Both the position numbers and the translations under genes were made by a program. Below the pieces are notes generated by a model that saw only the letters and a list, made by a program, of their open reading frames with translations, was not told the DNA's origin and searched no databases. From a virus, in IMG/VR virus record IMGVR_UViG_3300031823_000008, positions 2,247 to 66,246 of that record: DNA of 64,000 nucleotides. One strand, 5' to 3'. This document shows positions 43,343 to 61,188 of this stretch, one piece after another (the first letter of the stretch is position 1; every line of letters starts with the position of its first letter).

Positions 43343-44070
43343 TTCGCACCCCGATTCCAGCAGGACAGAAAACCGTCGCGGGAAGCCTGGATCATGAGAG
43401 TGCTCACCATATCCTGCTTGGCGGCATCACTCCATTGCTCATGCGCGGCGGCCAGGCCGTCCACCACCACGCCCAGCAATTCGCGGAAAGCGATGTCGTA
43501 CGGGATCTTGGCCGGAATGCCTGCCACAGCGTAAGGCTTCGGTGCTCCGTTCCCATTGACTGGTGGTGCGCTGTGTCCGTTGCTGGTACCATTGCCATTG
43601 TTTGAAGGTGGCTGTGCTGGTAGACGTGATGGTGTAATTGCGGTAACTGGCGCAGTCGGGGCCGGGGCGGCTGACACCGCTTCGGCCTTTTTCTTGCGCT
43701 CAATCTCGGCGAGCGATGCGCGGAGCTGCTGTTCGAGTTCCGACTCGGGAAGCCCGGTGGCGCATGCGGAGAGCGGGGGATGTGCGGGCTTCATCTCATC
43801 TTTGGCGACGGGCCAGAAGTCCCACACCGGTAAATCGCTTCTCTTCCCGGTCCACCGCTTGCATGCCCAGAAGAGCTGCCCCCTCCGGAGGCCGAGCATG
43901 TTGATGGTCTGCGCTACTCCCAGGTCGAGGTAGAGGCAGGAATCGGGCGGTTCCGCGAGCGAGAAGTAGACCTGGTCGCCAAATCGCCCCTCTACAATTT
44001 TGCCTTCCGGGTATTTGAGGGCGATCTGGATGGGAACGTTCGGCGTGATTTCAAGCTTTTGTGTGGGCAT
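43339..44070 (-). CDS. Probable recombination partner / ssDNA-binding protein
   Basis: Coupled to the exonuclease; beta-rich N-domain, Pro/Asn linker. Confidence 0.5.
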   Translation of the reverse strand: MPTQKLEITPNVPIQIALKYPEGKIVEGRFGDQVYFSLAEPPDSCLYLDLGVAQTINMLGLRRGQLFWACKRWTGKRSDLPVWDFWPVAKDEMKPAHPPLSACATGLPESELEQQLRASLAEIERKKKAEAVSAAPAPTAPVTAITPSRLPAQPPSNNGNGTSNGHSAPPVNGNGAPKPYAVAGIPAKIPYDIAFRELLGVVVDGLAAAHEQWSDAAKQDMVSTLMIQASRDGFLSCWNRGAK

Positions 44071-44355
44071 TTAGAGCCTCCCCTGGATGCTGCTCGCCCG
44101 CTGCTTCAGCTCGCTGAAATGCGCGCAGCACTGGCAGCCCGCTCCGGAATGCGCGGAGCACGCGCCCGTGGTTTCGCGGATCGCGTTCTCGGTGAACCAC
44201 CAGGCCAGGTCGACCAGCTTTTCCGCCTCCGGGCAGAGCGTCCCGCAGTCTCGCGCCAGGGACGAAGCCTGGTCGAGATCTTCATTGAGCTGCTCCAGCG
44301 CCTTGAGTTCGCTGCGCATTTCGTCTTCTCCCGCATCGGTGACTGAGTAGGACAT
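44071..44355 (-). CDS. Hypothetical protein
   Basis: GGAGG SD; CSAH...CQCC. Confidence 0.6.
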   Translation of the reverse strand: MSYSVTDAGEDEMRSELKALEQLNEDLDQASSLARDCGTLCPEAEKLVDLAWWFTENAIRETTGACSAHSGAGCQCCAHFSELKQRASSIQGRL

Positions 44356-44642
44356 TACGCCACCTCCCCGAACAGCTCGCCCTGCTGGCGTGCGATGCGC
44401 GCGGGCTTTACGACCACGGCGAGGAACGCTTCGGCTTCCTGCAGAGTGCAGCCGGTTTCGGCGAGGAACGCGGTCTCTCGCGCGATGACGGCCATCGCCT
44501 CCTCGACGCAAGGGTCGCAGCCCAGATAATCGAATTCGGGTATCTGGGTGAGACGCTCGGCGACCTCTCCGCAGTTCTGGCAGCGGAGTATGGCGACGGA
44601 GTCCAGGATGTCGGGCGAGCCGTCTTCGTTGCGGTCTATCAT
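44355..44642 (-). CDS. Zn-ribbon protein, first gene of the leftward operon
   Basis: CQNCG...CDPC; GAGG SD. Confidence 0.65.
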   Translation of the reverse strand: MIDRNEDGSPDILDSVAILRCQNCGEVAERLTQIPEFDYLGCDPCVEEAMAVIARETAFLAETGCTLQEAEAFLAVVVKPARIARQQGELFGEVA

Positions 44643-44695
44643 GCTTTGTTTCCTCTGCGCTTTAAGGTGTCGCCACCGTGTTGATCTACTCCTTA

Positions 44696-44725
44696 AGAAT
44701 AGCAGCTAGCGCTAGCACCTGTCAA
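44696..44725 (-). promoter_or_regulatory. Leftward early promoter with palindromic operator
   Basis: TTGACA-18 nt-TATTCT; spacer holds the perfect palindrome GCTAGCGCTAGC (44705-44716). Confidence 0.75.
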
Positions 44726-44770
44726 TAGCAGTAAGCAGCAAAAAGCGGTTCCTGATAGAATAAATCCCCG

Positions 44771-44926
44771 ATGGCAAGAAAAAAGAATGCCGCCGCCGTA
44801 GAACTCGGACGGAAGGGTGGCGCGGTAAAAGTACCAAAAGGATTCGCGACGATGAGCGATGAGGAGCGAAAGAGGATTCAGTCCGCTGGCGGCAAAGCCC
44901 GCTGGAAGAAGAAATCAGGAAAGTGA
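44771..44926 (+). CDS. 51-aa basic KGG-motif protein, candidate repressor (not in the ORF track)
   Basis: MARKKNAAAVELGRKGGAVKVPKGFATMSDEERKRIQSAGGKARWKKKSGK; TGA-TAGAAT just upstream, no SD. Confidence 0.75.
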   Translation: MARKKNAAAVELGRKGGAVKVPKGFATMSDEERKRIQSAGGKARWKKKSGK

Positions 44927-45222
44927 TGGATTACTATCGAGCGCGTGATGCTGCCACAACCGGAACGCCTCCGGCGCTTAAAATGTTGCCGATTGTGAAG
45001 GTGCTCTACTGCGCTGCCGCGAGTGCCCTTGGCGCGTCAGCAATCCTATTCATCGGCCTACAGATGCAGGATGCCGGGACCTCGGGAGGAACGCGGCTGG
45101 GAGACTTCTTCATCCCCTTGGCGGGCGCCGTCGCCTCGGTTCTGCTTTTCGCCAGCGGCGCGGCCCTCGGGCTCCTTCAGCGGATTGCGGAAGCGGTGGA
45201 AAATCGCGAGGTATCGAAATGA
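44923..45222 (+). CDS. Two-TM membrane protein
   Basis: Two hydrophobic helices, ends LLQRIAEAVE. Confidence 0.65.
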   Translation: MMDYYRARDAATTGTPPALKMLPIVKVLYCAAASALGASAILFIGLQMQDAGTSGGTRLGDFFIPLAGAVASVLLFASGAALGLLQRIAEAVENREVSK

Positions 45223-45512
45223 TGCAATTGAAAGAGCACGCCGGAACTATCACGGCTCTCAATATATTCGGCTGGATTGCAGCAATTCTCGCGCCCCTCC
45301 TGGGAGCATACTGCTGGCTCGTGGCTCAAAACGGCGCGGAGGATAGCGCGGCGATGCGGCCGCTCCTGTTCGCAGCGGGGGCCAGCTTCATATTCGGTCT
45401 CGTGCTGATTGGCTTGTCTGCCTTAATCGAAATCTCCGCGGAAGTTTCCAGGGCGGCGCATCTATTACTCGAAGAATCGAGATCGCGAGCAGCGGAGGCC
45501 ACGCTGAAATAG
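45219..45512 (+). CDS. Two-TM membrane protein
   Basis: Two hydrophobic helices, same layout as the previous gene. Confidence 0.65.
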   Translation: MMQLKEHAGTITALNIFGWIAAILAPLLGAYCWLVAQNGAEDSAAMRPLLFAAGASFIFGLVLIGLSALIEISAEVSRAAHLLLEESRSRAAEATLK

Positions 45513-45862
45513 CCCCCTTGCAGAGTGTGGGTAGAAATGAGCATTGAAGAAAATCTGCTTCTCGACTTCTCGGAGCTACGCTGGCTGGTAATCTCCTGTA
45601 CGGATTGCCACACGGAAGTATCCATTGACGCCGCAGAGACCAGTACCGCAATCCCATCTCAGTGCCCAAGCTGCAACAGGAGCTATGAGGGTTCCGTTCG
45701 CCAGAACCTCGACACCTTTCGCCGGCTCTACGCTACGGCCAGGTGGAAAGTCCGGGTCGTCAAAGGGAGCGAACCCCAGAAATAGGCCGCTTGCAGAGTG
45801 TGGCTGAAAGTGACGGTTTAGGATGAAAAAACTCTTAAGTCGGCCCTTTTGCAGAGTGTGGC
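45506..45862 (+). repeat. Three copies of TTGCAGAGTGTGG
   Basis: 45518-45530, 45791-45803, 45849-45861; the first two extend to GAAATAG(C/G)CC(C/G)CTTGCAGAGTGTGG. Confidence 0.85.
45538..45785 (+). CDS. Zn-ribbon protein flanked by direct repeats
   Basis: CTDC...CPSC; start approximate. Confidence 0.65.
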
Positions 45863-45917
45863 TTCAGCGCTACACGCAGAGTTTTAGCACGCTACGCCAG
45901 TGGCAGGAGGTGTACTG

Positions 45918-46241
45918 ATGAAAACAACGCCAAAGCTATCCGTAGGCGATCTTCAATCTGCATCGGAGGATCTCGCGCGCAACGCGCTGACTCTTCATCC
46001 AAATCTCCCGCCCGCACAGCTCGTGGACAAAATCGCGGATCTCGCCGATTCTGAAGTCAGGTCGGAGATCGAGCAATTTCTCTGGACTCAGTATTTTCTG
46101 CGAACTATTCGGCGCGTTCGATTTCAGGAGCGCCCGGTGCCCGCGCCTCTGTTCCATTACGCTCCGATACAGGAGGCATCGTCCCACCTTCCTGCGAAGC
46201 TGAAGCTAGGGGGTCCGCACTTTCCCGCCAGAATCTCTTGA
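45918..46241 (+). CDS. Hypothetical protein, paralogue of 17432..17911
   Basis: AGGAGG SD; SVG(D/E).......L.RN...L.P..P.A.L.D.I and APLF shared. Confidence 0.65.
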   Translation: MKTTPKLSVGDLQSASEDLARNALTLHPNLPPAQLVDKIADLADSEVRSEIEQFLWTQYFLRTIRRVRFQERPVPAPLFHYAPIQEASSHLPAKLKLGGPHFPARIS

Positions 46242-46266
46242 CTTCAATCGGGCCGCATGGTATATT
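46238..46266 (+). promoter_or_regulatory. sigma70-type promoter of cassette Y
   Basis: TTGACT-17 nt-TATATT. Confidence 0.7.
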
Positions 46267-46306
46267 CTAAGAGTAGCCCGCCACCAACGGGCAAGGAGAA
46301 AACCAA

Positions 46307-46552
46307 TTGAACGATCAACAGCTTTTGACTCTCGCCATCGCCATCGTCTTTCCGTTGTCGATGCTGATCTACTCCAACAGCCGCATCACCGAAGCCAAAG
46401 AGACGCTCCGCGCCGAAATGGGCGCTCTTCGAGCGGATATGAGACTGGACTTCGAGCGCGTCACCAATAAGATCGACCATCTGGCGGGCGAGGTCGCCAC
46501 CTTAAAAGACTTGATGTCTACGCACCTGCGTGAGCATCACAACGTCAAATAA
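46307..46552 (+). CDS. TM + coiled-coil small protein, first gene of cassette Y
   Basis: TTG start after hairpin + AAGGAG; YSNSRITEAKETLRAEM. Confidence 0.75.
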   Translation: MNDQQLLTLAIAIVFPLSMLIYSNSRITEAKETLRAEMGALRADMRLDFERVTNKIDHLAGEVATLKDLMSTHLREHHNVK

Positions 46553-46558
46553 ATCAAG

Positions 46559-46652
46559 CTCCGCCGCGCGGCTCTTCCGCTCGTTCGCGGTCCTCTCCGT
46601 AAGCGGAGCCTTCTGGGGTGGTACCCGGACCGGGGAGTAGGTAAGCTCCCCG
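46559..46652 (+). ncRNA. Conserved four-hairpin intergenic RNA motif, copy Y
   Basis: Homologous to 3549..3636 (-); shared GGAGTAGGYAAGCTCC hairpin. Confidence 0.65.
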
Positions 46653-46667
46653 AAAAGGAAATCAGAA

Positions 46668-46907
46668 ATGGCCGATATGACGATGAAAGAATTGCAGGAC
46701 ACCCTCGCTGTGGTTGTAGGGATTCAGGCCAGGCAGGCCGAGCTGATAAAGGGCCATGGCGAGTGGTTGCAGCAGCACGACCAAGCCATTTTGGATATCA
46801 GAGAGAACGGGCGCAGGACAGATGCGCGCATCGCCGAGATCGGGGAGCGGATCGACAAGCTGGTGAGCGGCATCGGCGAATTCATCCGCGGGGAGTCGCG
46901 TCAATGA
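46668..46907 (+). CDS. Small coiled-coil protein
   Basis: RRTDARI...ERIDKLVSGIGEFIR. Confidence 0.75.
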   Translation: MADMTMKELQDTLAVVVGIQARQAELIKGHGEWLQQHDQAILDIRENGRRTDARIAEIGERIDKLVSGIGEFIRGESRQ

Positions 46908-47218
46908 GCGCGCGCATTTCCGATCTCGCCGGCCGCCGATTCGGAAGGCTTAAAATCCCGCCGCGGAGTGAGCCCGAAATCCGCGACCGCCATGCCTACT
47001 GGCCCTGCATCTGTGATTGTGGCGGGAGAACCATCGCCAGAGGATCGAAGCTGCTGGCCGGCGTTACCATATCCTGCGGCTGCTACCGCGCGGATTCGGC
47101 GGTTCGCCAGGGCGCCAGTATGACGATATCGCCTCGGAAGCGCATCGCGCGGGCCAAACTCGGGGGTGCTGCTTATGCCGCCAAATATGCCGGCAAACCG
47201 AAGCCGCTGGGCAGGTAA
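46904..47218 (+). CDS. Protein with the N-terminal domain of HNH/AP2 homing endonucleases but no nuclease domain
   Basis: DLAGRRFGRL...WPCICDCG...G.TISCGC then a short basic tail. Confidence 0.65.
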   Translation: MSARISDLAGRRFGRLKIPPRSEPEIRDRHAYWPCICDCGGRTIARGSKLLAGVTISCGCYRADSAVRQGASMTISPRKRIARAKLGGAAYAAKYAGKPKPLGR

Positions 47219-47307
47219 TATCATACCCTCAGGCGGCCGGCGAGTTCCAAGAGCGCGTCTGAAGATCGCTTGGGGTGGGAAAAACGCGTGGAGGAAACAC
47301 GGCCGCC

Positions 47308-47490
47308 CTACGCCCCCGCCGCCCTCGGCTTCCGGCGCGACTTCTCCCGTTCGAGCACGTCGCGCAGCTCAGGAACATGAAGCAGAATCCGCCGCTCCCG
47401 GCTCAGTTCCTCATCGGTGAGGCCTTTCAATGCTTCGACGTAGGCGTCCAGACTTTGATTGAGGGCTTCACGGCGCAGTTGGGCAATCAT
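47308..47490 (-). CDS. Small hypothetical protein
   Basis: MIAQLRREAL...; ATG lies inside the 25-bp direct repeat. Confidence 0.5.
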   Translation of the reverse strand: MIAQLRREALNQSLDAYVEALKGLTDEELSRERRILLHVPELRDVLEREKSRRKPRAAGA

Positions 47491-47538
47491 ATGTGCAGGA
47501 TACACTTTCAAAAATCAGGAAGAAGCTTCAAGGCGTGA

Positions 47539-47635
47539 TTCGCGGCAACGGGGTGTGATCTGCTGACCGGAATTCTCGGCCCGGGGTAGACGCCATGCGG
47601 CCAAACCGTCGGCGAAGCGCCGCTGGCCGATGGCG
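47539..47635 (+). repeat. Structured repeat motif, copy A1
   Basis: 97 nt, differs from 52844..52940 only at 4 compensatory hairpin positions. Confidence 0.9.
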
Positions 47636-47766
47636 CGGACAGCGCTTCGATGGACCCGGAGCCAGCGGCTTCAACGGGATGGGTCCGAGGCAGTAGGGGC
47701 AGCCGTGCAGCGGCACGATCCGCCGGCAGCGGCGGCATCTCTTCATGCTCCATCATGCGCCCAATG

Positions 47767-47865
47767 CCCGGCGGACGGGCAGCGCTGCATCGGCGACGGT
47801 TTGACCGTCCGCTCTCCCCCCGGGCGCACCGTCCTGCCCCAGCAGCACCCACCTTGTTGCCGCGA
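47767..47865 (-). repeat. Structured repeat motif, inverted copy B1
   Basis: Near-identical to 53605..53704; reverse complement shares TCGCGGCAAC, GCCCGGGG.AGA, CAAACCGTCG..CGCTG with A. Confidence 0.85.
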
Positions 47866-47939
47866 TAAACAGGAGCATGCCGTCACAACTGGGCAATCAT
47901 ATGTGCAGGATACAGGGAATTGGCAGGTAGGCTGGAAGG

Positions 47940-48338
47940 TTATCGGCCGGAGCCGGCATGCGATCCCGGTTCAGCCTTCACCCGCTCCAGCAGAGCTTTC
48001 ACCCGCGCCAGCAGATCTGCCTTCAGGTGATCCTTCTCGAGGATCTGCCACCCGCCATGCAGCACGGCCAGGTCCCCGTCGGCCTTCCCGGTTAGCAGGA
48101 TCACCCGCATCGCCGGCCACGCCTCCTTCAATTTCTCCGCCACATCGGTGCCCAGGATCCCCGGCAGGATTACGTTGGCCAGCAAGAGATCGATGGGGCG
48201 CGGAAAGGCGAGCCCGATGCGAAGACCGTCCTTTCCGGTTTTGGCCGACAGGATTTCATAGGCCTCCGCCTCGAGCAGGATGCTCTTTACCAGCTTCAGG
48301 ATGGCTGGATCGTCTTCGACAATCAGAATCGTTCTCAT
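47940..48338 (-). CDS. Single-domain response regulator (receiver), phospho-Asp apparently replaced by Asn
   Basis: ILIVEDD...IDLLLANVILPG...VILLTG...ILEK. Confidence 0.85.
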   Translation of the reverse strand: MRTILIVEDDPAILKLVKSILLEAEAYEILSAKTGKDGLRIGLAFPRPIDLLLANVILPGILGTDVAEKLKEAWPAMRVILLTGKADGDLAVLHGGWQILEKDHLKADLLARVKALLERVKAEPGSHAGSGR

Positions 48339-48341
48339 AGC

Positions 48342-48632
48342 TCAGGCAGCGCTCCTCATGCCTTTGCAAAACGGCGAATCACAGGCGCACCCTTTGGGAT
48401 GCAACCCGGGCAAACAGTCCCTCCCCCGGATCAATGCGGCGGGATGCTGGAGTGCATAGACTACCAGTTGGGACCTCGAAACTTGGGCTTTCCTGCAGAT
48501 ATCGGCAATGTGGGAGTTTACGGTGTTAACGGTGATTTCGAGCTCGTGTGCGATTATCTTCGCCGGTGAGCCCAGGCAGATCAATTCGAGAATCTCGCGT
48601 CTGCGCCTGCTCAACGTGAAGGTTTGCCTCAA
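48342..48632 (-). CDS. LuxR-family HTH regulator with Cys-rich tail
   Basis: LSRRRREILELICLG...IAHELEITVNTVNSHIADICRK; C.CDSPFC. Confidence 0.8.
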   Translation of the reverse strand: MRQTFTLSRRRREILELICLGSPAKIIAHELEITVNTVNSHIADICRKAQVSRSQLVVYALQHPAALIRGRDCLPGLHPKGCACDSPFCKGMRSAA

Positions 48633-48727
48633 ATAAACTTCCGCATTTCATACGCCAGTCTCCAGAATACCCAGATTTAAAGCTTATACACATAGCCCGC
48701 AACCTCCGCCGGGCGCATCATTGGACC

Positions 48728-49141
48728 GTGGCAACTTCCGAACAGATCGCCATATTTGATGAATTTGGCGATCTTTATCAGGAAAGTCAGATATGGGCAC
48801 CCAAGCAAAAGCGCCTCGACGCTCTCAAAGAAACGATCCGAAGCTGGTACCCCGATGAGGAATTGCATCCGAGCCGTTGGGCTTACCCGGAAGGCAACCG
48901 GTTCGTAATCCAGATCGATCCCCGGCCTTTCGAGAAGTCCTGGGTCTCCATGGCCAAGGTCTGCAAGGCCGCCGGCGGGATGCGAGCCGTTCTCGCAATT
49001 TGCGACGTGACATTCAAGGCATTGGCCGGAGTAGTCGGCAACTCCGCCGCGGAAGCGCTCCAGATCGAAGCCCGCACCGGCAAACGCAAGATCAAAGCCA
49101 TTCAGCGATTGATTGCTGTCGAAATGCCCAAGGCAGCGTAA
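48728..49141 (+). CDS. Hypothetical protein
   Basis: 137-aa ORF, ends KAA. Confidence 0.6.
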   Translation: MATSEQIAIFDEFGDLYQESQIWAPKQKRLDALKETIRSWYPDEELHPSRWAYPEGNRFVIQIDPRPFEKSWVSMAKVCKAAGGMRAVLAICDVTFKALAGVVGNSAAEALQIEARTGKRKIKAIQRLIAVEMPKAA

Positions 49142-49227
49142 GACCTCACCGTGAGATTCGGAAAGTAACCCTTTCGATCCCACAAGACCGCCGGGCCGGT
49201 CTCTAAAATAGTCCGCCCCCCAAAATC

Positions 49228-49560
49228 ATGAACACAGTCGCGTCAACTCGCATTCCCGTATGCAATGGCGAGGGTGTCATTGTCGAACGTGTGGGGCAGG
49301 ACTCGGTTCGCGCACGCCGTCTGGCCGAAGCGCCGAACGCGACCGTGGTCCGCAAGCGCAGGGGGCCAATCGTCAGGATCCTGCTGAAATCCGTGGCGGA
49401 TAATTCGGGAGAAACTTCCCTCCGCGGCAATCCGCGCGCGATGAGCCACGATCACGAGACGGATGTGAATCCTCGGAACGTGTGGATATTGAAACATATC
49501 GTCAGCTCCGCAGCCGATCTCTTCGACACTGTTGTCAATGAGTTGAAAACGGCCGCCTGA
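49228..49560 (+). CDS. Hypothetical protein
   Basis: TGATG coupling to the next gene. Confidence 0.6.
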   Translation: MNTVASTRIPVCNGEGVIVERVGQDSVRARRLAEAPNATVVRKRRGPIVRILLKSVADNSGETSLRGNPRAMSHDHETDVNPRNVWILKHIVSSAADLFDTVVNELKTAA

Positions 49561-49829
49561 TGCCGAATCGCAATAACCGCTGCTCCTGCGGAATCTGTCC
49601 GGCCTGTGCGCGCAGCATCGCGTTCTCCGCCATGCGCTCCGGCCGTTCCGTCTGCCGGTGTGGCTTCGCAAATTGCGATTGCGCCCGATGGGAACGGATC
49701 TATCGCGAGAAGTTCGAGGATCCGGATTATTACGACCTGGTCGACCAGCTCAAGTATCCCAGAACTTCGAACATCACCGAGCAGTATCGCTTTCTTCCGC
49801 CGCACAGCGGCCCCTCCGAGACCCTATGA
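49560..49829 (+). CDS. Small Cys-rich protein
   Basis: CSCGICPAC...CRCG...CDC. Confidence 0.6.
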   Translation: MPNRNNRCSCGICPACARSIAFSAMRSGRSVCRCGFANCDCARWERIYREKFEDPDYYDLVDQLKYPRTSNITEQYRFLPPHSGPSETL

Positions 49830-50596
49830 AATTAGAAGCAGTCATCACGTGCGTGAATTACGGGGATTTTCTCGCTCACACCCTCCCCTACAACAAGGCG
49901 CAGTTCGACAATCTCGTGGTTGTCACCGCGCCAACTGACAACCTGACCCGCCGAGTCTGCGAATTCCATCACGTCACCTGCATCTTGACGGATGAATATC
50001 AGGCCCACTGGGGCAAGTTCAGGAAGGGGGCGGGAATCAATGTTGGCCTGAAGGCTTTGGAGTGCTCGGACTGGATCGTGCAGCTCGATGCCGACATGGC
50101 TATGCCTCCGATGTTCCGCCGCGTGATTGAAACTGCGGACCTGGACAAGTCCTGCCTCTATGGCATCGACCGCTTCATGGTGCCCTCCTTTGATGCGTGG
50201 CTGCAATTCATGACCTGCCCGGCGCTCCAGCATGAGAATGGCTCGTGGATACACACCGAAGCGTTCCCGCTGGGCACGCGCGTGTGGCTGCCGCACACCG
50301 GCGGCTATGTGCCGATCGGGTTCTTCCAGCTCTGGAATAAAGCTGCAGGCGTCGAAGCCTATCCGGCGACGCATGACACGGCTGCCCGCGGAGACATTCA
50401 GTTTGCGCAACTCTGGCCCCGCAACAAACGCCACATGCTGCCCGAGATTATCGGCTATCACCTGGAAAGCGAAGCGGCAACCCACGGCGCGAATTGGAAT
50501 GGGCGTGTGACCAATCGCTTCGGGCCCGATCCGATCTTCAGCCCACCGGTGGCTCGGCCGAAGCCTCCCCAGAGCGATCCGGAAGAGGACTACTAG
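49826..50596 (+). CDS. GT-A fold (family 2-like) glycosyltransferase
   Basis: VITCVNYGDFL, KGAGINVGL, WIVQLDAD, GFFQLW, DIQF. Confidence 0.8.
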   Translation: MKLEAVITCVNYGDFLAHTLPYNKAQFDNLVVVTAPTDNLTRRVCEFHHVTCILTDEYQAHWGKFRKGAGINVGLKALECSDWIVQLDADMAMPPMFRRVIETADLDKSCLYGIDRFMVPSFDAWLQFMTCPALQHENGSWIHTEAFPLGTRVWLPHTGGYVPIGFFQLWNKAAGVEAYPATHDTAARGDIQFAQLWPRNKRHMLPEIIGYHLESEAATHGANWNGRVTNRFGPDPIFSPPVARPKPPQSDPEEDY

Positions 50597-50617
50597 GGCT
50601 CGGGTACGATTTCTGCG

Positions 50618-50908
50618 ATGCAAATTGATTACAAAATCGACCTCGGGCACATCCTGACCGCGGCGGTACTCTTGCTCGGTTTCGCCGTCCAGTACGGGTC
50701 CCTGTCGAATCGTCTGACCGTGGTCGAAGTACAAGCAGCAAAGGCGTCCGCCACCAACGAGACGCTGGTGCTGACGCTGAATTCCCTCCAGGTCACCATC
50801 ACGCGTGTGCAGACCCAGATGGATGAAAGAGAGAAGCGGATTGACGAATCGGTCACCGCCCAGAATCTGCTCGAAGACCGGCGCGATATCCGCAGGGGCA
50901 TCAAGTGA
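50618..50908 (+). CDS. TM + coiled-coil protein (holin/hemolysin-like)
   Basis: IDLGHILTAAVLLLGFAVQY then heptads. Confidence 0.6.
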   Translation: MQIDYKIDLGHILTAAVLLLGFAVQYGSLSNRLTVVEVQAAKASATNETLVLTLNSLQVTITRVQTQMDEREKRIDESVTAQNLLEDRRDIRRGIK

Positions 50909-51006
50909 TTCCGATCGAGCAATGGCCGGAACCTGAGATCTATGAGCTGTTGAGCTGGGATCTTCCTGGTCAGCGCTCGAAGATCAGGCAGCGGCCTAAG
51001 GTGTGA

Positions 51007-51057
51007 TTCGCGGCAAGCGGGTGTGATCTGGTCGCCTAAGAGGCGCTGGCCGATGGC
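51007..51057 (+). repeat. Structured repeat motif, internally deleted copy A3
   Basis: TTCGCGGCAAGCGGGTGTGATCTG joined directly to GTCGCCTAAGAGGCGCTGGCCGATGGC. Confidence 0.85.
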
Positions 51058-51059
51058 AG

Positions 51060-51371
51060 TCAGGCTGACGCGATCGCGGACCGAAAGTAGACGATCTTTT
51101 GGAAACAGGCCATATGGAATTGTGCCTGTTTCACGTGCTTGCCCTTGCCCTGAAATAAGATCACCGGCACCCGATCACGGCATAGCCCGCAATCACCGCA
51201 ATCCTCCGGGTGGTCATCCCATCGAGGATCGTCTTCCGAAACGCCGATAGGCTCCCGGCATAGGGCGCAGCAGCACTCCGGATCTTTGCATCCAGGCTCG
51301 CCGCATGAACCGCGCGACGACCAGCGAATAGCGCCAAGGTATTGGGGCTTTATCTGGAAATCAAGAGCCAT
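51060..51371 (-). CDS. Cys-rich hypothetical protein
   Basis: C...C....CCALC...C.DC.LC...FH..CF. Confidence 0.6.
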   Translation of the reverse strand: MALDFQIKPQYLGAIRWSSRGSCGEPGCKDPECCCALCREPIGVSEDDPRWDDHPEDCGDCGLCRDRVPVILFQGKGKHVKQAQFHMACFQKIVYFRSAIASA

Positions 51372-51377
51372 AGAACC

Positions 51378-52259
51378 ATGAATATCAAACCCATTCGCGA
51401 CGTGCTGGTCTGCCTCGCCCTCGCCGCGTTACTCGCAGTCCTGGTGCAGACCGCCCTCGCTGTCCATTCCGTCAATCTCGCCGTGGCCAGTCTGCCGGCG
51501 CAGCTCACCGGGATCCGCCAGGATCTGACCTCCCAGCTTTCGCGTGTGGTGGACGGCGATCCGCGAAGCCTGGATATCGAAGACAAAGTACCGTTGCGCG
51601 CGCTCTTACTGACGTTTCTGAACGGCCAGATTCGCGGTTTGCGAAGCGATACCAGCAAACAGCTTACCGCCATCGAATTCGATGCCATGACAGCGATTCG
51701 CGAGCAGGGTTCAGCCCTGAACGGCCAGGTGGCCGAAGCGTTGAAGATCACCAATGCGCGGACCGGGCAGGCCCTCGACCAGCTCGCTGAATTGCGCGCC
51801 GATCTGGCGCCGACGTTCAAGAACATGACCAGCATCACGGCTCATGCCGATGAGGCCGCTGCAATTCTCTTCCGGCGCGACGCGCTTCCGGCGCAAACCC
51901 TCGGATTGATCGCGGCCGCCAAAGTCGCCACGGGGCAGACGGCACTGACAATGCGCGATGTCCAGGACGCGATGCCTCAGATGCTCGCGAGCTTCCAGAA
52001 AATCGGCAATAACTCGGACAAGCTCACCGCCGAGACCATCGCCACCGCCAAGGAATCGACCAGGCTGGTAAAGAATCTCGCGGACAATACCACCCCGCTG
52101 CCGAAGTGGATCCGCTACCCGGCGCAGGTCGTCGGGCTTTTGGGAAGTGCCGCCCTCCCTGTCATCGGCATTGAAAAGCTGGCCACTACCAGCACCATTT
52201 CGAGCACCGTCGTGCAGGTGGTCAACGGCAAGTCCGCTACCGCCAAGTCCAAGGAGTAA
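51378..52259 (+). CDS. Membrane-anchored long coiled-coil protein
   Basis: N-terminal TM, helical repeats, C-terminal hydrophobic segment. Confidence 0.7.
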   Translation: MNIKPIRDVLVCLALAALLAVLVQTALAVHSVNLAVASLPAQLTGIRQDLTSQLSRVVDGDPRSLDIEDKVPLRALLLTFLNGQIRGLRSDTSKQLTAIEFDAMTAIREQGSALNGQVAEALKITNARTGQALDQLAELRADLAPTFKNMTSITAHADEAAAILFRRDALPAQTLGLIAAAKVATGQTALTMRDVQDAMPQMLASFQKIGNNSDKLTAETIATAKESTRLVKNLADNTTPLPKWIRYPAQVVGLLGSAALPVIGIEKLATTSTISSTVVQVVNGKSATAKSKE

Positions 52260-52265
52260 TACCCA

Positions 52266-52688
52266 ATGACGTTTTTCACTTCTTTCGAGCATGCGGTAGC
52301 CAAGGGCTACGGTGCGCTGAAATCGCTCGGTGTGAGCGATCTTCCCAAGGTTCAGGCGGCTGTAGCCTTCGCCACCAAATCCATTCCTACCGCTGTAGCT
52401 GTGGCCACCGTGATCGATCCGGCGGCAGGCTCGATTATCTCCGCAGTCGGCAATGCGTCCAATGCCATGCTGGCGAAAGTTACCGTGGCTCTCAATGACG
52501 AGGCGACCATGCAGGCCGCTCTGGCTTCCGGCACTCTGACCATTCAGATCGCAGCCGACGAAATCAATGATGTGAAGGCTTTGACGCCTTCCGTCCTCGG
52601 AGTAGTTTCGGCAATCGGTCTCGGCCACACGATCCCCGTTGTTGTCGCCCCCGTGGTCCCTTCCGCCCCTCATCCGGTCGCAGGGTAA
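52266..52688 (+). CDS. Ala/Val-rich hypothetical protein
   Basis: AAGGAG SD; 140 aa. Confidence 0.7.
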   Translation: MTFFTSFEHAVAKGYGALKSLGVSDLPKVQAAVAFATKSIPTAVAVATVIDPAAGSIISAVGNASNAMLAKVTVALNDEATMQAALASGTLTIQIAADEINDVKALTPSVLGVVSAIGLGHTIPVVVAPVVPSAPHPVAG

Positions 52689-52837
52689 TGTCTCAAACTC
52701 CCATCATCATCGCTCTGGTAGCTCTGGTGCTGGGATTGTCTGCGATTGGAATCGTGTCAGGGAATGCTGCCGTCCTTACGTTGGCGGCAGCAGCCCTTAC
52801 TGGATTATTTGCGTTCCTCCAGCATGAGGAGAAGTAG
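52688..52837 (+). CDS. 49-aa two-TM protein, holin candidate (not in the ORF track)
   Basis: MSQTPIIIALVALVLGLSAIGIVSGNAAVLTLAAAALTGLFAFLQHEEK*; TAATG coupling. Confidence 0.65.
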   Translation: MSQTPIIIALVALVLGLSAIGIVSGNAAVLTLAAAALTGLFAFLQHEEK

Positions 52838-52843
52838 GGGCTT

Positions 52844-52940
52844 TTCGCGGCAACGGGGTGTGATCTGCTGACCGGAATTCTCGGCCCGGGGTAGACGCCA
52901 TGCGGCCAAACCGTCGCCTAAGAGGCGCTGGCCGATGGCG
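52844..52940 (+). repeat. Structured repeat motif, copy A2
   Basis: 97 nt, matches A1. Confidence 0.9.
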
Positions 52941-52957
52941 AGAAAGAAAGAATTTCG

Positions 52958-53404
52958 ATGTATCCGTGTTTCCTGATTGAAGCGATCTACGATGAGCCCG
53001 GCAGCATGCTCCCGGACAAAGGATGGGACCCGCTCGGGCGCTCCATCATGGGCTGGATAAGGAAAGACACGGGCGAGGAACGCCAGCACAACAGTCAGTT
53101 CGGCGTCGGCGCTATGTGGTTCGCCACATGGCAATCTCGCAATTGGGACTGGGAAAACGAGACAGAGCCGCACTTGCTTGTGCGCTGTCCAAACGGCGAG
53201 GGTACGCGCGATTGGGATATCGATTCGCGCTGTAGTAACTGCGGGCTCCCCTCAGACAAAATTCACCGCTGCTGGGTCCGGCACGGAACGCCGCCTCTGA
53301 TCACCGTAGACAAACACGGCGTCACCTGCAATGCCGGCGCGGGAAGCATAGCGCTCCCGAAGTGGCATGGGTTTCTCCGCAACGGCAGTTTAGTGCTGGC
53401 TTAG
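52958..53404 (+). CDS. DUF6527-like Cys/His protein
   Basis: LLVRCPNG...WDIDSRCSNC...HRCWVRHG...GSI....WHGFLRNG. Confidence 0.65.
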   Translation: MYPCFLIEAIYDEPGSMLPDKGWDPLGRSIMGWIRKDTGEERQHNSQFGVGAMWFATWQSRNWDWENETEPHLLVRCPNGEGTRDWDIDSRCSNCGLPSDKIHRCWVRHGTPPLITVDKHGVTCNAGAGSIALPKWHGFLRNGSLVLA

Positions 53405-53416
53405 CGGTTTCATCAG

Positions 53417-53590
53417 TCAGTCGCCTTCCTTCAACGCCCGGATCGCCCGTTCAGTGATTGCGAGGCTCGCCTCCAACTTCCCGCGCCGTTCTCCGTGCGC
53501 GAACTGCAACCGATAAATGAGAGCCTGCCGATAATCTCTCCTATCTTTTAACTGCAGCTCCGCCCGGCCTTTCGCGGTCCTCATCCTCAT
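53417..53590 (-). CDS. 57-aa basic helical protein (not in the ORF track)
   Basis: MRMRTAKGRAELQLKDRRDYRQALIYRL...ALKEGD*, just downstream of motif B2. Confidence 0.45.
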   Translation of the reverse strand: MRMRTAKGRAELQLKDRRDYRQALIYRLQFAHGERRGKLEASLAITERAIRALKEGD

Positions 53591-53604
53591 ACAGCAACCC
53601 TACA

Positions 53605-53704
53605 CCCGGCGGACGGGCAGCGCCGCACCGGCGACGGTTTGACCGTCCGCTCTCCCCCGGGCGCACCGTCCTGCTTAAAGCAGACCACTCTCCGTTGCCG
53701 CGAA
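53605..53704 (-). repeat. Structured repeat motif, inverted copy B2
   Basis: Ends CCGTTGCCGCGAA, the reverse complement of the start of A2. Confidence 0.85.
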
Positions 53705-53711
53705 TAACAAA

Positions 53712-55106
53712 ATGAAACTCCTTACTTTATTTCTCATCTCCCTCGCACTCTGCGCACAAACCCCCGCACACATAGTCCTGATGCAGTATGAGGCATGGTT
53801 CGGTCCCTCAGCAGTAGGCTTCGAATGGAGCACGTCCCAGCCCCTCTTGACCAGTCCCTCCATGCAAGCTGCAGGGCTGAAGGGCTACGACAGCGCAGAC
53901 CCCCTGGTAATCAAGCAGCACGCCGCATGGCTGGAACAGATGGGCGTCGACGGCGTCCTGGTCGACATGACGAACGGCGTCAACTGCTCCTTCTTCCAAG
54001 CCTGGCAGCCCTACTGCGAACAGGCCAACTGGACTTCCTTCCAGGAGATCCGAGCAAACACCGCGAACCTCTACCCCGCATTCACGCAATTGGGAGCACC
54101 GCTCAAAATCGTGCCCCTGGTGGGCGGCGGCGACCCGTCCTACTTCGACCTCGACACCAACGGGAAAACGGCAGTGGAAGAGCAGCTCGACTGGTTCAGC
54201 GTTCTGATCGCGCAATACCCGGCAATGAACGTCACCTTCCAAGGCAAGCCCCTGGTAATCGCCTATATCGGTTGCCCGACGGACATCACCCCAACCGCAG
54301 CCTGGCGACAGATGACGGCGATCGCGGCGAAGTATCCAAACCTGACCATCAAACTCATGGGCGGATTCCAGGACAGCCAAAGCGAACTCTGGGACAACCC
54401 GAGCGGCCTGGACGGACTGAGGGAAATGAGCGCGCAATACCCCGACTGGTCATGGGTCGATCGCCTGAATTCAGCCAGCAGCCTTCTGCCGACGTATGTT
54501 CTCAATCAAGGGCAACCCGAAAACCTGACCGCTTCCATGGCAACCCCCGGGCAGGCCGGCTGGGGAAACGCAACCACCGGAGTCTATGATCCGGAAACCG
54601 GCCAAAACCAGAACGGCAGCACCTTCAACGGATTCATCGCGATCGCAAGCAAGCTGCAGCCCTCGGTCCTGATTCTTCACCAGTTCAACGAATTCAGTGA
54701 AAACGGCTGGGACGTGGTGACCGATACCGACATTGAACCGAGCACCTTCACCGGAATGGCGAGCCTCACCGAAGTCCAGAATGGAATCGCGGCTTACCGG
54801 CTGGCATTGATTCCCCCGGCCACACCGCCCGTCACCGTCACACCCCCGCCCATCATCGTTACGCTGGCCTCCATGCCAATGACAATGGTGCAGGGCACCC
54901 AGACAGTGGCCCTCTCCTACAACCCCTCAAACGGAGTCTGGACAGGCACACCGGCCCCGGTGCAATTCGGAATTCCGGGAGATATGCCGCTCATCATCGA
55001 ATGGCAGGGGGGCAACCACATCGCTGTATGGCGCCCCGGGACCAATCAGGTGATAGTGAACTCCGATAACACCTCCTACCACGGTAGCAACCAGGTGATT
55101 CTGTAA
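53712..55106 (+). CDS. Secreted glycoside hydrolase, GH99/GH71-like TIM barrel
   Basis: MKLLTLFLISLALCA|Q; YEAWF, YDSADP.VIKQHA.WL..MGVDG...D, QFNEF. Confidence 0.7.
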   Translation: MKLLTLFLISLALCAQTPAHIVLMQYEAWFGPSAVGFEWSTSQPLLTSPSMQAAGLKGYDSADPLVIKQHAAWLEQMGVDGVLVDMTNGVNCSFFQAWQPYCEQANWTSFQEIRANTANLYPAFTQLGAPLKIVPLVGGGDPSYFDLDTNGKTAVEEQLDWFSVLIAQYPAMNVTFQGKPLVIAYIGCPTDITPTAAWRQMTAIAAKYPNLTIKLMGGFQDSQSELWDNPSGLDGLREMSAQYPDWSWVDRLNSASSLLPTYVLNQGQPENLTASMATPGQAGWGNATTGVYDPETGQNQNGSTFNGFIAIASKLQPSVLILHQFNEFSENGWDVVTDTDIEPSTFTGMASLTEVQNGIAAYRLALIPPATPPVTVTPPPIIVTLASMPMTMVQGTQTVALSYNPSNGVWTGTPAPVQFGIPGDMPLIIEWQGGNHIAVWRPGTNQVIVNSDNTSYHGSNQVIL

Positions 55107-55387
55107 TGAAGGCCCTGGGAGATCTCCCCCGCGCCATACGGATGGCCTTTCGCATCGCCTGGAATTGCATCCACCCGCGGCGCGATCGCCGCGAACTCAT
55201 CATCCTGCGCGACACCCTGGTGAGCAATTTCAAACGGGCATTTCCCGCGCGCTTCCCAGGCGATTCCCAGGACATGATCGAACTTCTGGCCGCGACCGTG
55301 ATGGTCCAACGGCAGGATATCCGGGCACTCCGACAGATTCTGGCAGCGGTGCGAGCCAGAAAAGGAAACAATGAAGCGAATTCTTAG
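55106..55387 (+). CDS. Hypothetical protein
   Basis: TAATG coupling. Confidence 0.55.
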   Translation: MKALGDLPRAIRMAFRIAWNCIHPRRDRRELIILRDTLVSNFKRAFPARFPGDSQDMIELLAATVMVQRQDIRALRQILAAVRARKGNNEANS

Positions 55388-56276
55388 CCTGGATGGCGGC
55401 GGAGTCCGCGGCGCCCTGACCACCTGCTTCCTCGTCGAGCTGGAAAGGCGCACCGGCAAACTCTGCCGCGAGTACTTCGACCTGGTCGCCGGCACTTCCA
55501 CGGGCGCTCTGATTGCCACGGCTATCGCTGCCGGCATTCCAGCGACCACCATCCTCGAAATCTATCAGCAGGACTGCCCGAAGCTGTTCCACCTCTCCAC
55601 GGTCGAGTCCTGGGCGGAGCGCATCCTCAAGGGTTATGCCTATCACCCGGAAGCGGTTAAGCAGATCCTGGTGAACCGGCTGGGAGCCTCAGCATCCTGG
55701 AAGCTCAACGACTCGCCAGTCCGTCTCCTCCTCACCGCCAAAGGGATGAATGGCCACCCCTGGTATTTCGTGCGCGACAACCCGAAGAACGCCGGCACCA
55801 CAGGCGGGCTCTCTCTTCTCGATTGCGCGATCGCCTCGGGAGCAGCTCCCACCTATTTCGCGCCCTGGTATGTTTCGCCCGTCTCCATCCTGGTCGGCTG
55901 GTGCTTCGACGGAGGAACCGGCATCACCGGCAATCCAGTCCACCAGGCCGTCGTGGAAGCTTTCCGCTACGATGATTTCGACCCTGCGGATACGCGCGTC
56001 ATCTCCCTAGGCACCGGCTTTGTTCCGGATCTCCAGACGAATCCGCCTGCAGGTCTGCTCGACACATTGACCTGGACCATCGACACTTTGCTCGACGCGC
56101 CCATCGATGAGCAGAGCAATCTCGTGAATCTCTACTACGCGGGCATCCTGCAGCGGTATAACTGGCAACTTCCCGCGGCGGTGGATATGGCGGACGCAGG
56201 TGCGATCCCCGGCCTTGTGGAGCTGGGCCAAAAGGTCGTGCCGGCGATGGACTGGGACGCCATTCTCAAGGATTAA
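55371..56276 (+). CDS. Patatin-like phospholipase
   Basis: LSLDGGGVRG, AGTSTG, SGAAPTYF, FDGG..GNP, SLGTG. Confidence 0.9.
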   Translation: MKRILSLDGGGVRGALTTCFLVELERRTGKLCREYFDLVAGTSTGALIATAIAAGIPATTILEIYQQDCPKLFHLSTVESWAERILKGYAYHPEAVKQILVNRLGASASWKLNDSPVRLLLTAKGMNGHPWYFVRDNPKNAGTTGGLSLLDCAIASGAAPTYFAPWYVSPVSILVGWCFDGGTGITGNPVHQAVVEAFRYDDFDPADTRVISLGTGFVPDLQTNPPAGLLDTLTWTIDTLLDAPIDEQSNLVNLYYAGILQRYNWQLPAAVDMADAGAIPGLVELGQKVVPAMDWDAILKD

Positions 56277-56518
56277 GCGGCCCGCTTCGCCGCGGCCCAG
56301 CGCCTCTTCTGCGCAAGGCTGATTGCCCGTCTGCCGGCGGCGGTCATTGTGCGACGCTTAGGTCTGTTCACCGAGACGCTCGCAGGTCTACTGCCGGGCA
56401 TCAGGGACGGCTCCAGCATTTCCCGAAGTTCTCGAATCTTCTGATCTATCTGGGACTTTTGAAGTTCCATGCCCGCGATCGCCGCTCGCGCTATTGCGGG
56501 AGTGAGTTTGTTCGGCAT
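56273..56518 (-). CDS. Small coiled-coil + basic-tail protein, putative DNA-binding
   Basis: ELQKSQIDQKIRELR...KRRTMTAAGRRAISLAQKRRWA. Confidence 0.7.
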   Translation of the reverse strand: MPNKLTPAIARAAIAGMELQKSQIDQKIRELREMLEPSLMPGSRPASVSVNRPKRRTMTAAGRRAISLAQKRRWAAAKRAA

Positions 56519-56553
56519 GCCCGACATTCTGTCTCGCGACAAACAGGAAATAA

Positions 56554-57033
56554 ATGAAGACCTCTTCTGTCGGCATAGCCCTGATCTGCCATTTCGAAGG
56601 CTGCAAATTGACAGCCTACAAATGCCCGGCCGGCATCTGGACCGTCGGATACGGCCACACGGGAGCGGGCGTTACCTCCGGACTCACCATCACGCAGGAC
56701 CGCGCCGAGCAGCTCCTGGCCGCGGATCTCCTGAACTTCGAGACCGGCGTTTATGGAATGACGGGCAGCATCCTGCAGTGCCGCTTCGACGCGCTCGTGT
56801 CCTTCAGCTATAACCTCGGCCTCCACACGCTCGAGGGCTCGACCCTCCTGAGGAAATTCAGACTGGGCGACATTGCGGGCGCAAGCGCAGAGTTCCCCCG
56901 ATGGTGCCATGTCGGCGGCGCCGGGGTGGTCCTCGAGGGCCTGGTGAGACGGCGCGCCGCGGAGCGAGTGCTCTTCGATGCCGGCGACTGGATGTCGGCC
57001 GTTCAGCCGATTCAACCGAAGCTCGCAGCTTGA
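56554..57033 (+). CDS. Endolysin, GH24 lysozyme
   Basis: FEGCKLTAYKCPAGIWTVGYGHT, FDALVSFSYNLG, GLVRRRAAER.LF. Confidence 0.95.
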   Translation: MKTSSVGIALICHFEGCKLTAYKCPAGIWTVGYGHTGAGVTSGLTITQDRAEQLLAADLLNFETGVYGMTGSILQCRFDALVSFSYNLGLHTLEGSTLLRKFRLGDIAGASAEFPRWCHVGGAGVVLEGLVRRRAAERVLFDAGDWMSAVQPIQPKLAA

Positions 57034-57044
57034 TATAAGGGACC

Positions 57045-57146
57045 ATGCGCATCGTGCGCTCGATTCTCTGGATCGCTCTGACCATCGTAGTGATGGCCGC
57101 GTTCTTCTATTTGCAGATCCGGATCCTGCTGATTGGTCACAAATGA
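57045..57146 (+). CDS. 33-aa single-TM peptide
   Basis: MRIVRSILWIALTIVVMAAFFYLQIRILLIGHK*, ATGA-coupled to the recombinase. Confidence 0.5.
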   Translation: MRIVRSILWIALTIVVMAAFFYLQIRILLIGHK

Positions 57147-57766
57147 GAATAGCCATCTACGCTCGCGTCAGTACTTCTGATCAATCGTGCCAAATGCAGT
57201 TGAGCGAGCTCCGATCCTACGCGCAACGCATGGGCTGGGAACCTCCAGTTGAATACGTGGAGACTGCCAGCGGCAAGGCCTTGAGCAAACGTCCGGTTCT
57301 GGCGAAGCTCCTGGCCGATGCGCGGCTGCGCAGGTTCGACGTGCTGCTGGTCTGGAAGCTGGACCGCTTCGGCCGAAGTCTCAAACACATCTGCGAGAAT
57401 ATCGAAACCCTGGACGCTTCCGGAGTCCGCTTCCTATGCCCCTCTCAGGGAATCGACACCGACAACCGCTCGCCGATGGGCAAGTTCTTCGTTCAGATTC
57501 TGGGCGCCTTCGCGGAGCTCGAGCGGGAAATCATCAAAGAGCGGACGATGACGGGCAAAGCGGAATACAACAAGGCCTTCGACCGCGGCGACATCGGCAA
57601 GGTGCGGAACTCGAGGAGCGGGAAGAATCTGCCCAGCCACCGGCCGAAGAAAGTCTTCCGTCGCGACCTGGCGAAGGAGCTCCGCGAGAGCGGGATGAGC
57701 TGGCGCGCCATCGGAAAGCAGCTCGGCGTTCCCCAATCCACGATTCGCCTGGCACTGTCGATTTAG
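57143..57766 (+). CDS. Small serine recombinase (resolvase/invertase family)
   Basis: AIYARVSTSDQ, VWKLDRFGRS, AELEREIIKER, C-terminal HTH. Confidence 0.9.
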   Translation: MRIAIYARVSTSDQSCQMQLSELRSYAQRMGWEPPVEYVETASGKALSKRPVLAKLLADARLRRFDVLLVWKLDRFGRSLKHICENIETLDASGVRFLCPSQGIDTDNRSPMGKFFVQILGAFAELEREIIKERTMTGKAEYNKAFDRGDIGKVRNSRSGKNLPSHRPKKVFRRDLAKELRESGMSWRAIGKQLGVPQSTIRLALSI

Positions 57767-61061: not shown

Positions 61062-61188
61062 CCGAGATGCACGTCACCGAAGCCCGTGACAGGCACCCAC
61101 GATTCACCAAAGTGGTCATCTCCGTCATGGTCGCGTCCTACCTCGCCCTGTTCATCAACATTCTCGTTTCAATGCCCGGTTGCACCAA

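Follow-up and report, generated by a model that had tools for sequence, protein, structure and literature searches.

What is a structured motif of about 100 nucleotides (nt), present in five copies and mostly set in inverted pairs around small genes, doing in the genome of an uncultured soil phage? The question is raised by IMG/VR virus record IMGVR_UViG_3300031823_000008, of which we analyzed a 64,000-nt window (bases 2247 to 66246 of the 66,246-nt record, i.e., nearly the whole phage genome); positions below are those of the window. The feature is real, nonrandom, and lineage specific. We favor, with moderate confidence, the explanation that a small family of insertion cassettes, private to this phage and carrying accessory genes, has ends of two kinds and that the five copies are these ends. 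The copies, here called arms, do not stand alone as RNA genes but form the ends, A at the left and B at the right, of three insertions, named E1, E2, and E3 (Table 1). The finding belongs with the inverted-repeat-bounded mobile cassettes of phages and is not a new category.

The repeat search and MAFFT alignment resolved the motif into four full copies and one internally deleted copy, with A1, A2, and A3 on the plus strand and B1 and B2 on the minus strand. A sequence-only reading of the window had described the same five copies, their inverted pairing, and A3 as a deleted copy; all of this was recovered, also by a covariance model built from the four full arm copies (R1). R1 scored the full copies at 106 to 112 bits (E ~1e-22) and A3 at 18.5 bits, with no other match in the window, and a search of the whole 66-kb genome returned the same five places and no further copy. 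A1 and A2 are identical at 93 of 97 bases, and reverse-complemented B1 and B2 match the A arms with a mean column identity of about 70%. In 64 kb there are four exact occurrences of the word TCGCGGCAAC, each at the outer end of an arm. TCGCGGCAAC and GTTGCCGCGA form perfect terminal inverted words in both A/B pairs (11 nt in E3), a length at the minimum (≥10 to 15 bp) used for MITEs (miniature inverted-repeat transposable elements), and the arm ends read AAC...GTT. Invariant across A and B are the outer word, a CCCGGGG block, and an unpaired CAAACCGTCG stretch within the hairpin; the asymmetric internal loop of the hairpin (CAAACCGT) is likewise invariant.

The four differences between A1 and A2 fall at copy positions 74, 76, 80, and 82, where 74 pairs with 82 and 76 with 80 in the inner 5-bp stem, and all four are compensatory, as had been noticed from the sequence; two compensated pairs are expected from random substitution with a P of 5e-6 (analytic) to 9e-6 (simulated). 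The outer stems, as also claimed earlier, keep their pairing despite different sequences in A and B. When the hairpins were folded by themselves as DNA, those of A gave z scores of −3.8 and −4.9, and 0 of 200 shuffles were as stable. Constraint on a folded single strand, as proposed earlier, agrees with the two compensated pairs and with the invariance of the internal loop and is plausible on the strength of five copies within a single genome; such structural selection could be mimicked by hairpin-templated repair or by gene conversion from one copy to another. The A/B palindrome folds equally well on either strand, and the strand of action therefore cannot be told from the fold. GTAG does stand directly before the hairpin in A (GGGGTAGA), as reported, whereas B has GGAG (GGGGGAGA). 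The inner stem of A3 is identical to that of A2, and A3 shares 31 nt of its outer (left) flank with A1; the B arms are nearly identical over the inner ~75 nt and differ over the outer ~30 nt. Because A3 mixes features of A2 and A1 and the B arms differ only in their outer part, the arm copies have exchanged sequence among themselves.

The insertions themselves emerge from comparison with one close relative, the only one returned by protein queries, which is a single 40,980-nt contig, 62% complete (L024/L107/L108/L125). It is syntenic with the window from ~43.9 to 59.8 kb, with protein identities of 72 to 92% (72% in a 464-amino-acid [aa] protein and 82% in a 137-aa protein). R1 at an E value of ≤1 found no A or B arm in the 40,980 nt of this 62%-complete record. 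At the site of E1, the distance from a receiver-domain gene to the next small gene is about 24 nt in the relative versus 483 nt here (window positions 47505 to 47988). E2 is absent from the relative as a whole, with the flanks aligning well on both sides. At the E3 junction, between genes for a 49-aa membrane protein and the 464-aa protein, both phages carry extra DNA, and it is different DNA. Because the E1 and E2 sites are uninterrupted in the relative and the E3 junction holds a different cargo, the arms are, as judged from this alignment, the borders of three lineage-specific insertions. The earlier suggestion that the copies border cargo-bearing units is borne out, and the related phage has different or no cargo at the same places.

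E1 contains only two mutually antisense 72-aa frames and measures 327 nt between its 10-nt perfect terminal words. Its homology with E3 runs beyond the arms: 47514 to 47658 aligns with 52824 to 52966, and 47740 to 47871 aligns with 53578 to 53709, so that the repeated units are longer than the ~100-nt motif, which does occupy the spans first assigned to it. Short inner flanks of E1, 15 to 30 nt past the arms, align with the starts of both E3 cargo genes; this similarity would be weak alone and was counted since it is continuous with the arms. We take E1 to be, most plausibly, a copy of an E3-like unit whose interior was deleted. The sequence-only reading had not included a direct repeat that flanks E1; it is exact over 25 nt, matches at 88% over 34 nt, and lies at distances of 34 and 15 nt from the arms. 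Because this repeat duplicates the start of the adjacent gene, it shows that E1 is an insertion with duplication in this lineage and not a deletion in the relative. The receiver-domain open reading frame (ORF) beside E1 (47940 to 48338, minus strand) directly follows an ORF with a GerE/LuxR-type helix-turn-helix (HTH) (48342 to 48632, minus strand); the two are separate genes in the reverse of the usual domain order and are 82 to 85% conserved in the relative.

E2 consists of A3 and cargo without a B arm. Two nucleotides past A3 lies the stop of a minus-strand gene for a 103-aa protein with 46 homologues, at 53 to 73% identity, in soil metagenomes and a Bryobacteraceae metagenome-assembled genome (MAG). 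The interior of E2 has no similarity to E1 or E3. A 33-codon ORF (50905 to 51006) overlaps the end of the gene for the Rz-like spanin and is positioned like an Rz1-type partner. Its last codons diverge from the relative exactly at the start of E2, and the insertion appears to have replaced its C terminus and stop codon.

E3 starts, with A2, 6 nt past the stop of the gene for the 49-aa membrane protein (52688 to 52837), and the outer end of B2 lies 7 nt ahead of the ATG of the gene for the 464-aa protein (53712 to 55106). Of the two convergent cargo ORFs, the 148-aa ORF is a real gene because it has at least 1,219 homologues, mostly from soil and viral sources; no Pfam domain was hit. The protein has conserved Cys, Ser, and His residues and is modeled as a confident beta-sandwich (predicted local distance difference test, 92.3), for which there was no PDB match at an E value of ≤0.001. 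A feature search in the ESM Atlas placed it near clusters in which 12 to 52% of members carry PF20137/BubE (DUF6527). PF20137 matched neither the phage genome nor any of 55 homologues of the 148-aa protein, and the likeness to BubE is thus not confirmed by hidden Markov models (HMMs). A preprint (bioRxiv 10.1101/2024.11.21.623953) describes BubE as a Ser-His protease encoded in ubiquitination-like operons of bacteria, for which an antiviral role is assumed. The 148-aa protein may accordingly be a phage counterdefense protein, a lead from the feature search that the HMMs do not confirm. No homologue was found for the convergent 57-aa ORF. The 148-aa cargo gene of E3 and the 103-aa cargo gene of E2 belong to real families that also occur elsewhere without arms: R1 had no match at 8 loci with homologues of the 148-aa protein or at 4 loci with homologues of the 103-aa protein, and inverted repeats around cargo homologues in other phages were at chance level only.

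Table 1. Coordinates of the arms, insertions, cargo genes, and other features, in window positions unless stated otherwise
Feature	Position	Strand	Remarks
A1	47539-47635	+	Left arm of E1; outer 10-nt word TCGCGGCAAC; hairpin 47591-47635
B1	47767-47865	-	Right arm of E1; hairpin about 47771-47812
A2	52844-52940	+	Left arm of E3; hairpin 52896-52940
B2	53605-53704	-	Right arm of E3; hairpin about 53609-53650
A3	51007-51057	+	Truncated A arm of E2; an internal stretch of 45 bases that takes in the 5' half of the hairpin is missing
E1	47505-47880		Whole inserted block, 376 nt, without credible cargo; from comparison with relative
E2	50993-51354		362-nt insertion, absent from relative
E3	52844-53704		A2, two convergent small ORFs, B2; 861 nt
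E2 cargo gene	51060-51371	-	103 aa, Cys rich
E3 cargo gene	52958-53404	+	148 aa
E3 second ORF	53417-53590	-	57 aa, convergent; candidate gene
Direct repeat, copy 1	47471-47504		34 nt (exact 25 nt, 47480-47504); holds the real start of a 60-aa gene, 47308-47490 (-)
Direct repeat, copy 2	47881-47914		Duplicated gene start, now five codons and then a stop
Second repeat family, window pair	41228-41282 / 41511-41566	+ / -	Pair shared with the relative: 41262-41278 and 41514-41530
Second repeat family, relative	L108 2806-2863 / 3042-3100; L024 9372-9428 / 9940-9998		L024 pair is the extra one, just upstream of the gene for the 464-aa protein
Serine recombinase	57143-57766	+	207 aa, small, Gin/Hin-like; candidate trans-acting enzyme
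Tyrosine recombinase	37991-38992	+	Distantly Xer-like; second candidate trans-acting enzyme
Terminase large subunit	58406-59755		Pfam/PHROG scans
Portal-like protein	61180-62751		Pfam/PHROG scans
Endolysin	56554-57033		Pfam/PHROG scans
Patatin-like protein	55371-56276		Pfam/PHROG scans
Rz-like spanin	50618-50908		Pfam/PHROG scans

A second family of inverted repeats plays the same part in this lineage. At the third junction, the cargo of the relative lies between two inverted arms of an unrelated ~55-nt repeat (core, GTTCACGAGGGACTGGA), each of which stands just 5' of an inward-facing ORF, with two convergent ORFs inside. Another pair, at ~41.3 to 41.5 kb of the window, lies within a minus-strand ORF (41226 to 41570) that is conserved in the relative at both its N-terminal and its C-terminal part. 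The pair itself is at the homologous place in both phages, and the ~200 nt between its arms are unrelated in the two, in either orientation. The arms of this family have no significant fold and no motif in common with A or B. Segments that are bounded by inverted repeats and can be swapped thus seem, from two genomes, to be a habit of this small lineage, which strengthens the cassette explanation and makes the A/B hairpin less convincing as the sole reason for the arrangement. The gene for the terminase large subunit is mosaic: compared with L024 14543 to 15850, its N-terminal half is strongly diverged and its C-terminal half nearly identical, at 60% overall.

Outside this genome, no further copy of the arms came to light. 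The motif had not been recognized as a member of a known family, and Rfam cmscan of 44000 to 57000 at an E value of ≤1 gave two weak matches elsewhere and none on an arm. Homologues in Acidobacteriota genomes and in viral and soil collections, the check that the sequence-only reading had called for, did not appear. Arm-derived pattern and word scans returned 0, 0, and 1 locus from IMG/VR and 93 loci (18 + 74 + 1) from GTDB, none a true copy by R1, and one arm pattern gave 0 matches in JGI metagenomes. Across all 94 returned loci, the best R1 score was 28.6 bits, for the hairpin part only, and none of the 93 GTDB loci exceeded 23 bits over the full arm. BLAST of E1 against 50,697 phage records gave no match. 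Neither 401 sampled Acidobacteriota genomes nor 401 genomes from the order to which a Bryobacteraceae MAG belongs yielded a copy, the only matches being single ones of 23 to 59 nt that R1 did not recognize; with E1 as the query, 5 + 401 + 401 Acidobacteriota genomes gave 5, 22, and 2 genomes, respectively, with short GC-rich matches, and R1 rejected those fetched. R1 also had 0 matches in 93 loci (1.15 Mb) around terminase relatives.

How might such cassettes move? We propose that they are "morons" with structured inverted ends, A being the left end and B the right end, and that recombination at these ends would have brought them in and multiplied them within this genome. The part recognized would be the outer 10- to 11-nt inverted word together with the ~45-nt stem-loop, whose stems would be free to change as long as pairing holds and whose asymmetric internal loop would be fixed. 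A recombinase acting in trans could read the fold as extruded or single-stranded DNA; candidates are the Gin-like serine recombinase and the Xer-like tyrosine recombinase of the phage or an enzyme of the host. The serine recombinase has the Gin invertase as its best PDB match (4m6f and 3uj3; E value, 1e-22) and "DNA invertase" as its best PHROG (3e-47). The tyrosine recombinase scores 29 to 37 bits against Xer and integron-related models, whose curated cutoffs are 220 to 371 bits. Alternatively, replication-coupled illegitimate recombination might take the place of an enzyme in trans, with the structured part of the arm being recognized or tolerated. Once transcribed, the fold could also be used as an insulating hairpin at a gene junction. 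Copying and pasting is suggested because distinct left and right ends were duplicated together, flanking sequence was carried along, and a long duplication stands at E1. Because there is no short target duplication, the E1 duplication is 25 to 34 nt, and the copies are mosaic, recombinase-driven or replication-coupled copying would fit better than transposition by a DDE enzyme. In the assembly, the shared A part is represented by a contig of 73 nt whose depth is about threefold that of its neighbors, as expected for a collapsed repeat.

Several observations weigh against this explanation. No transposase family was detected among 64 ORFs scanned together or 29 scanned singly, there was no six-frame match to the Y1 transposase family (PF01797) at an E value of ≤1 in the 66-kb genome, and no 2- to 10-bp target duplication abuts the arms of E1 or E3; on these counts, classical transposition is not supported. 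Direct repeats flanking E2 and E3 are at chance (7.5 versus a random median of 7 and a 95th percentile of 9). The relative encodes a serine recombinase that is 92% identical to the one here, HTH included, and since the 62%-complete record of the relative has no A/B arm, the enzyme is not tied to the arms. Contigs assembled from two DNA runs that contain the stretch, one of them possibly from the source sample, break at the repeats, and no alternative joints or variants are present in them; no RNA run with the sequence was listed. The B hairpins are only weakly stabler than shuffles (z scores of −1.6 to −2.0; 6 to 18 of 200 shuffles) and have alternative folds, and folds of whole 100-nt arms are not significant against shuffles; only the A hairpins are clearly stabler than shuffles. 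In an ungapped four-row alignment, 27 of 500 shuffles reach the observed pairing, although the outer stems of A and B are out of register there, which makes this a weak count of covariation. Only one end is present in E2. Loss from the relative, instead of an insertion here, is excluded for E1 only, and the whole comparison involves one genome and one relative.

The alternatives are taken up here in descending order of probability. The main rival is a regulatory role, which is compatible with mobility: the arms would be hairpins at gene junctions (terminator, insulator, mRNA-stabilizing hairpin, or translational operator) duplicated with accessory genes, and the borders would be the cassettes' own expression signals. 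The arms are indeed tight on gene boundaries (A3 abuts a stop codon, A2 just follows one, and B2 just precedes an ATG), an ATG lies within 15 to 21 nt inward of each arm, the hairpin is stable and its stem covaries, the one mismatched inner pair of B1 is a G-T wobble on the plus strand and C-A on the minus strand, and in the analogous cassette of the relative, two convergent genes each have an inverted repeat directly 5' of them. We nonetheless consider this role, on its own, unlikely, since a crude consensus scan for Escherichia coli-type signals found no promoter-like hexamers and no U-tract terminator in the arms, E1 has arms without a credible gene and inverted relative to local transcription, homologues of both cargo genes occur in other phages without such arms, and the palindromic fold has no strand preference. 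The same scan argues against one option of the sequence-only reading, a border of the type formed by promoter early stem-loops (PeSLs) in T4-type phages. According to Arbiol et al. (2010; PMC2839356), PeSLs too are stem-loop motifs that border nonessential, phage-specific genes in a variable region, and insertions, deletions, and replacements between close relatives map to them. There, however, a PeSL comprises a sigma-70-like promoter and a terminator and forms direct repeats that recombine to circles, whereas here neither promoter nor U-tract was detected and the arms are inverted, ~100 nt long, and ~70% alike. Because they are inverted and only ~70% alike, homologous exchange between the two arms of a unit is unlikely. 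Somewhat further down comes the possibility, to us a rather poor one, that A and B are crossover regions for a Gin/Hin-like serine recombinase, such that E3 toggles which convergent gene is read from the operon and E1, lying between the receiver gene and the one next to it, acts as a regulatory flip-flop. The inverted arms enclose short segments (~130 and ~660 nt), and the Gin-like recombinase is encoded 3.4 kb downstream of B2, E3 being the inverted-repeat pair closest to that gene in the window; in the relative, the closest pair to the recombinase is the cassette at the same junction. The Gin/Hin/Cin segments of phages Mu and P1 are similar in being short, flanked by inverted repeats, and a few kilobases from a small serine recombinase gene in a tailed phage. 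They differ in that here the arms are long, structured, and 96% identical between loci, no tail fiber gene runs across an arm, and the same enzyme is present in the relative without these repeats. Against inversion, moreover, A1 and A2 are 96% alike over 97 nt and A and B ~70%, pointing to a duplicated unit with distinct ends and not to a short shared crossover core; the second-family interiors are unrelated in either orientation, hence replaced and not flipped; the two repeat families have no common submotif; and the assembled contigs, which break at repeats, contain no inverted joints.

Next in order is a bolder form of the cassette explanation, to which we give little credence: the arms would be folded-DNA recombination sites, defined by shape and the invariant loop, at which the lineage's own recombinases capture, swap, and discard accessory or counterdefense genes at fixed junctions. 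Just as speculatively, such a platform could be analogous to integron attC sites or Xer-mobilized modules, but with ends that are inverted and paired, and the second repeat family would be a sister system. Still less probable is the literal version, in which the arms are sites of a cassette-capture system, like integron attC or CTX-type folded attachment sites, read as single-stranded hairpins by a Xer-like tyrosine recombinase. It would account for the retention of pairing in spite of sequence change, for an internal loop that is both asymmetric and conserved, and for the AAC...GTT ends; a Xer-like tyrosine recombinase is encoded, the same junction has different cargo in two related phages, and one cargo is possibly counterdefense (the BubE-like lead, from the feature search only). 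The outer arm words, however, do not fit the canonical attC core consensus, the arms occur as inverted pairs around cargo and not as one site per cassette, and no array is present. In addition, the tyrosine recombinase, ~9 kb away, scores far below all curated cutoffs, including that of the integron-integrase-related model. Least probable, and in our view very much so, is a host-derived MITE or a repetitive extragenic palindrome (REP) doublet forming a hairpin (REPIN) that hopped into the phage, mobilized by a host transposase or a REP-associated tyrosine transposase (RAYT). E1 is MITE-like in its 10-nt perfect terminal words, long imperfect inverted arms, small size (327 to 376 nt), and noncoding interior, and GTAG precedes the A hairpin. 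REP/REPIN-RAYT systems likewise have imperfect palindromes in inverted pairs, GTAG 5' of the hairpin, and compensated stems. Here, though, the unit is ~100 nt and not 20 to 40, there are five copies and not hundreds, they are in a phage, and there is no RAYT; the REPIN-like unit entertained by the sequence-only reading is further made unlikely by B arms without GTAG, by the lack of a Y1 transposase in the phage genome (although a host could encode one), and by the lack of copies in the candidate host genomes searched. For MITEs in phages, Nadal-Molero et al. (NAR 2024; PMC11602168) document a rare occurrence (0.01% of viral sequences) in IMG/VR phages, with 99 of the 284 MITEs in known-host phages belonging to phages assigned to Acidobacteriae UBA7540. 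Viral MITEs resemble the present units in being small intergenic insertions with inverted ends, in several copies per phage genome and absent from a close relative, with a noncoding member that, like E1, resembles a deletion derivative of a larger one. They also differ: here there is no 2- to 10-bp target duplication, no parent element or transposase, and no counterpart in the searched cellular genomes; the perfect inverted word is only 10 to 11 nt, with homology between copies running beyond it; and two of the three units carry genes. No copy was present in the 802 sampled Acidobacteriota/Bryobacterales genomes or the 93 GTDB pattern hits, and E3 (861 nt) and E2 (362 nt) carry genes with homologues, unlike MITEs and REPINs.

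The phage record has an exact terminal repeat of 127 nt and a G+C content of 59.6%, and besides the genes listed in Table 1, the Pfam/PHROG scans identified a PD-(D/E)XK nuclease. The cassette region is the meeting point of leftward early genes and rightward late/lysis genes. Terminase relatives at ~50% identity lie, at 8 of the 14 loci returned, in MAGs labeled Bryobacteraceae, Solibacteraceae, Bryobacterales, or Acidobacteria; because of these labels, the host is probably a member of that group. Other repeats were also seen in the window. A 31-nt inverted repeat (84% complementary; 33268 to 33298 and 61078 to 61108) has its arms 27.8 kb apart, one of them just upstream of the portal-like gene. 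Among small early-region ORFs lies a direct repeat of 35 nt (83%; 45506 to 45540 and 45779 to 45813, 273 nt apart), which could be a repeated promoter or operator. The repeat scan further returned a 162-nt tandem duplication (71%) within an ORF at 1794 to 2117 and, at 36715 to 36768, a 9-nt unit (GAGGGCAGC-like) in four overlapping copies.

Accessory and counterdefense genes of phages turn over fast, and in very few lineages is it known what machinery brings this about, the PeSLs of T4-type phages being one example. The locus described here provides a clean case: in an uncultured soil phage, which has prophages of Bryobacterales-type Acidobacteriota as its relatives, three insertions share structured ends, the empty sites are kept in a relative, and a second repeat family has the same role at the same junction. 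If the ends are mere junction hairpins, this would be a tidy but ordinary example of moron acquisition. If they are true recombinase substrates, they would represent a new way for phages to exchange small genes and would offer a handle for finding such genes.

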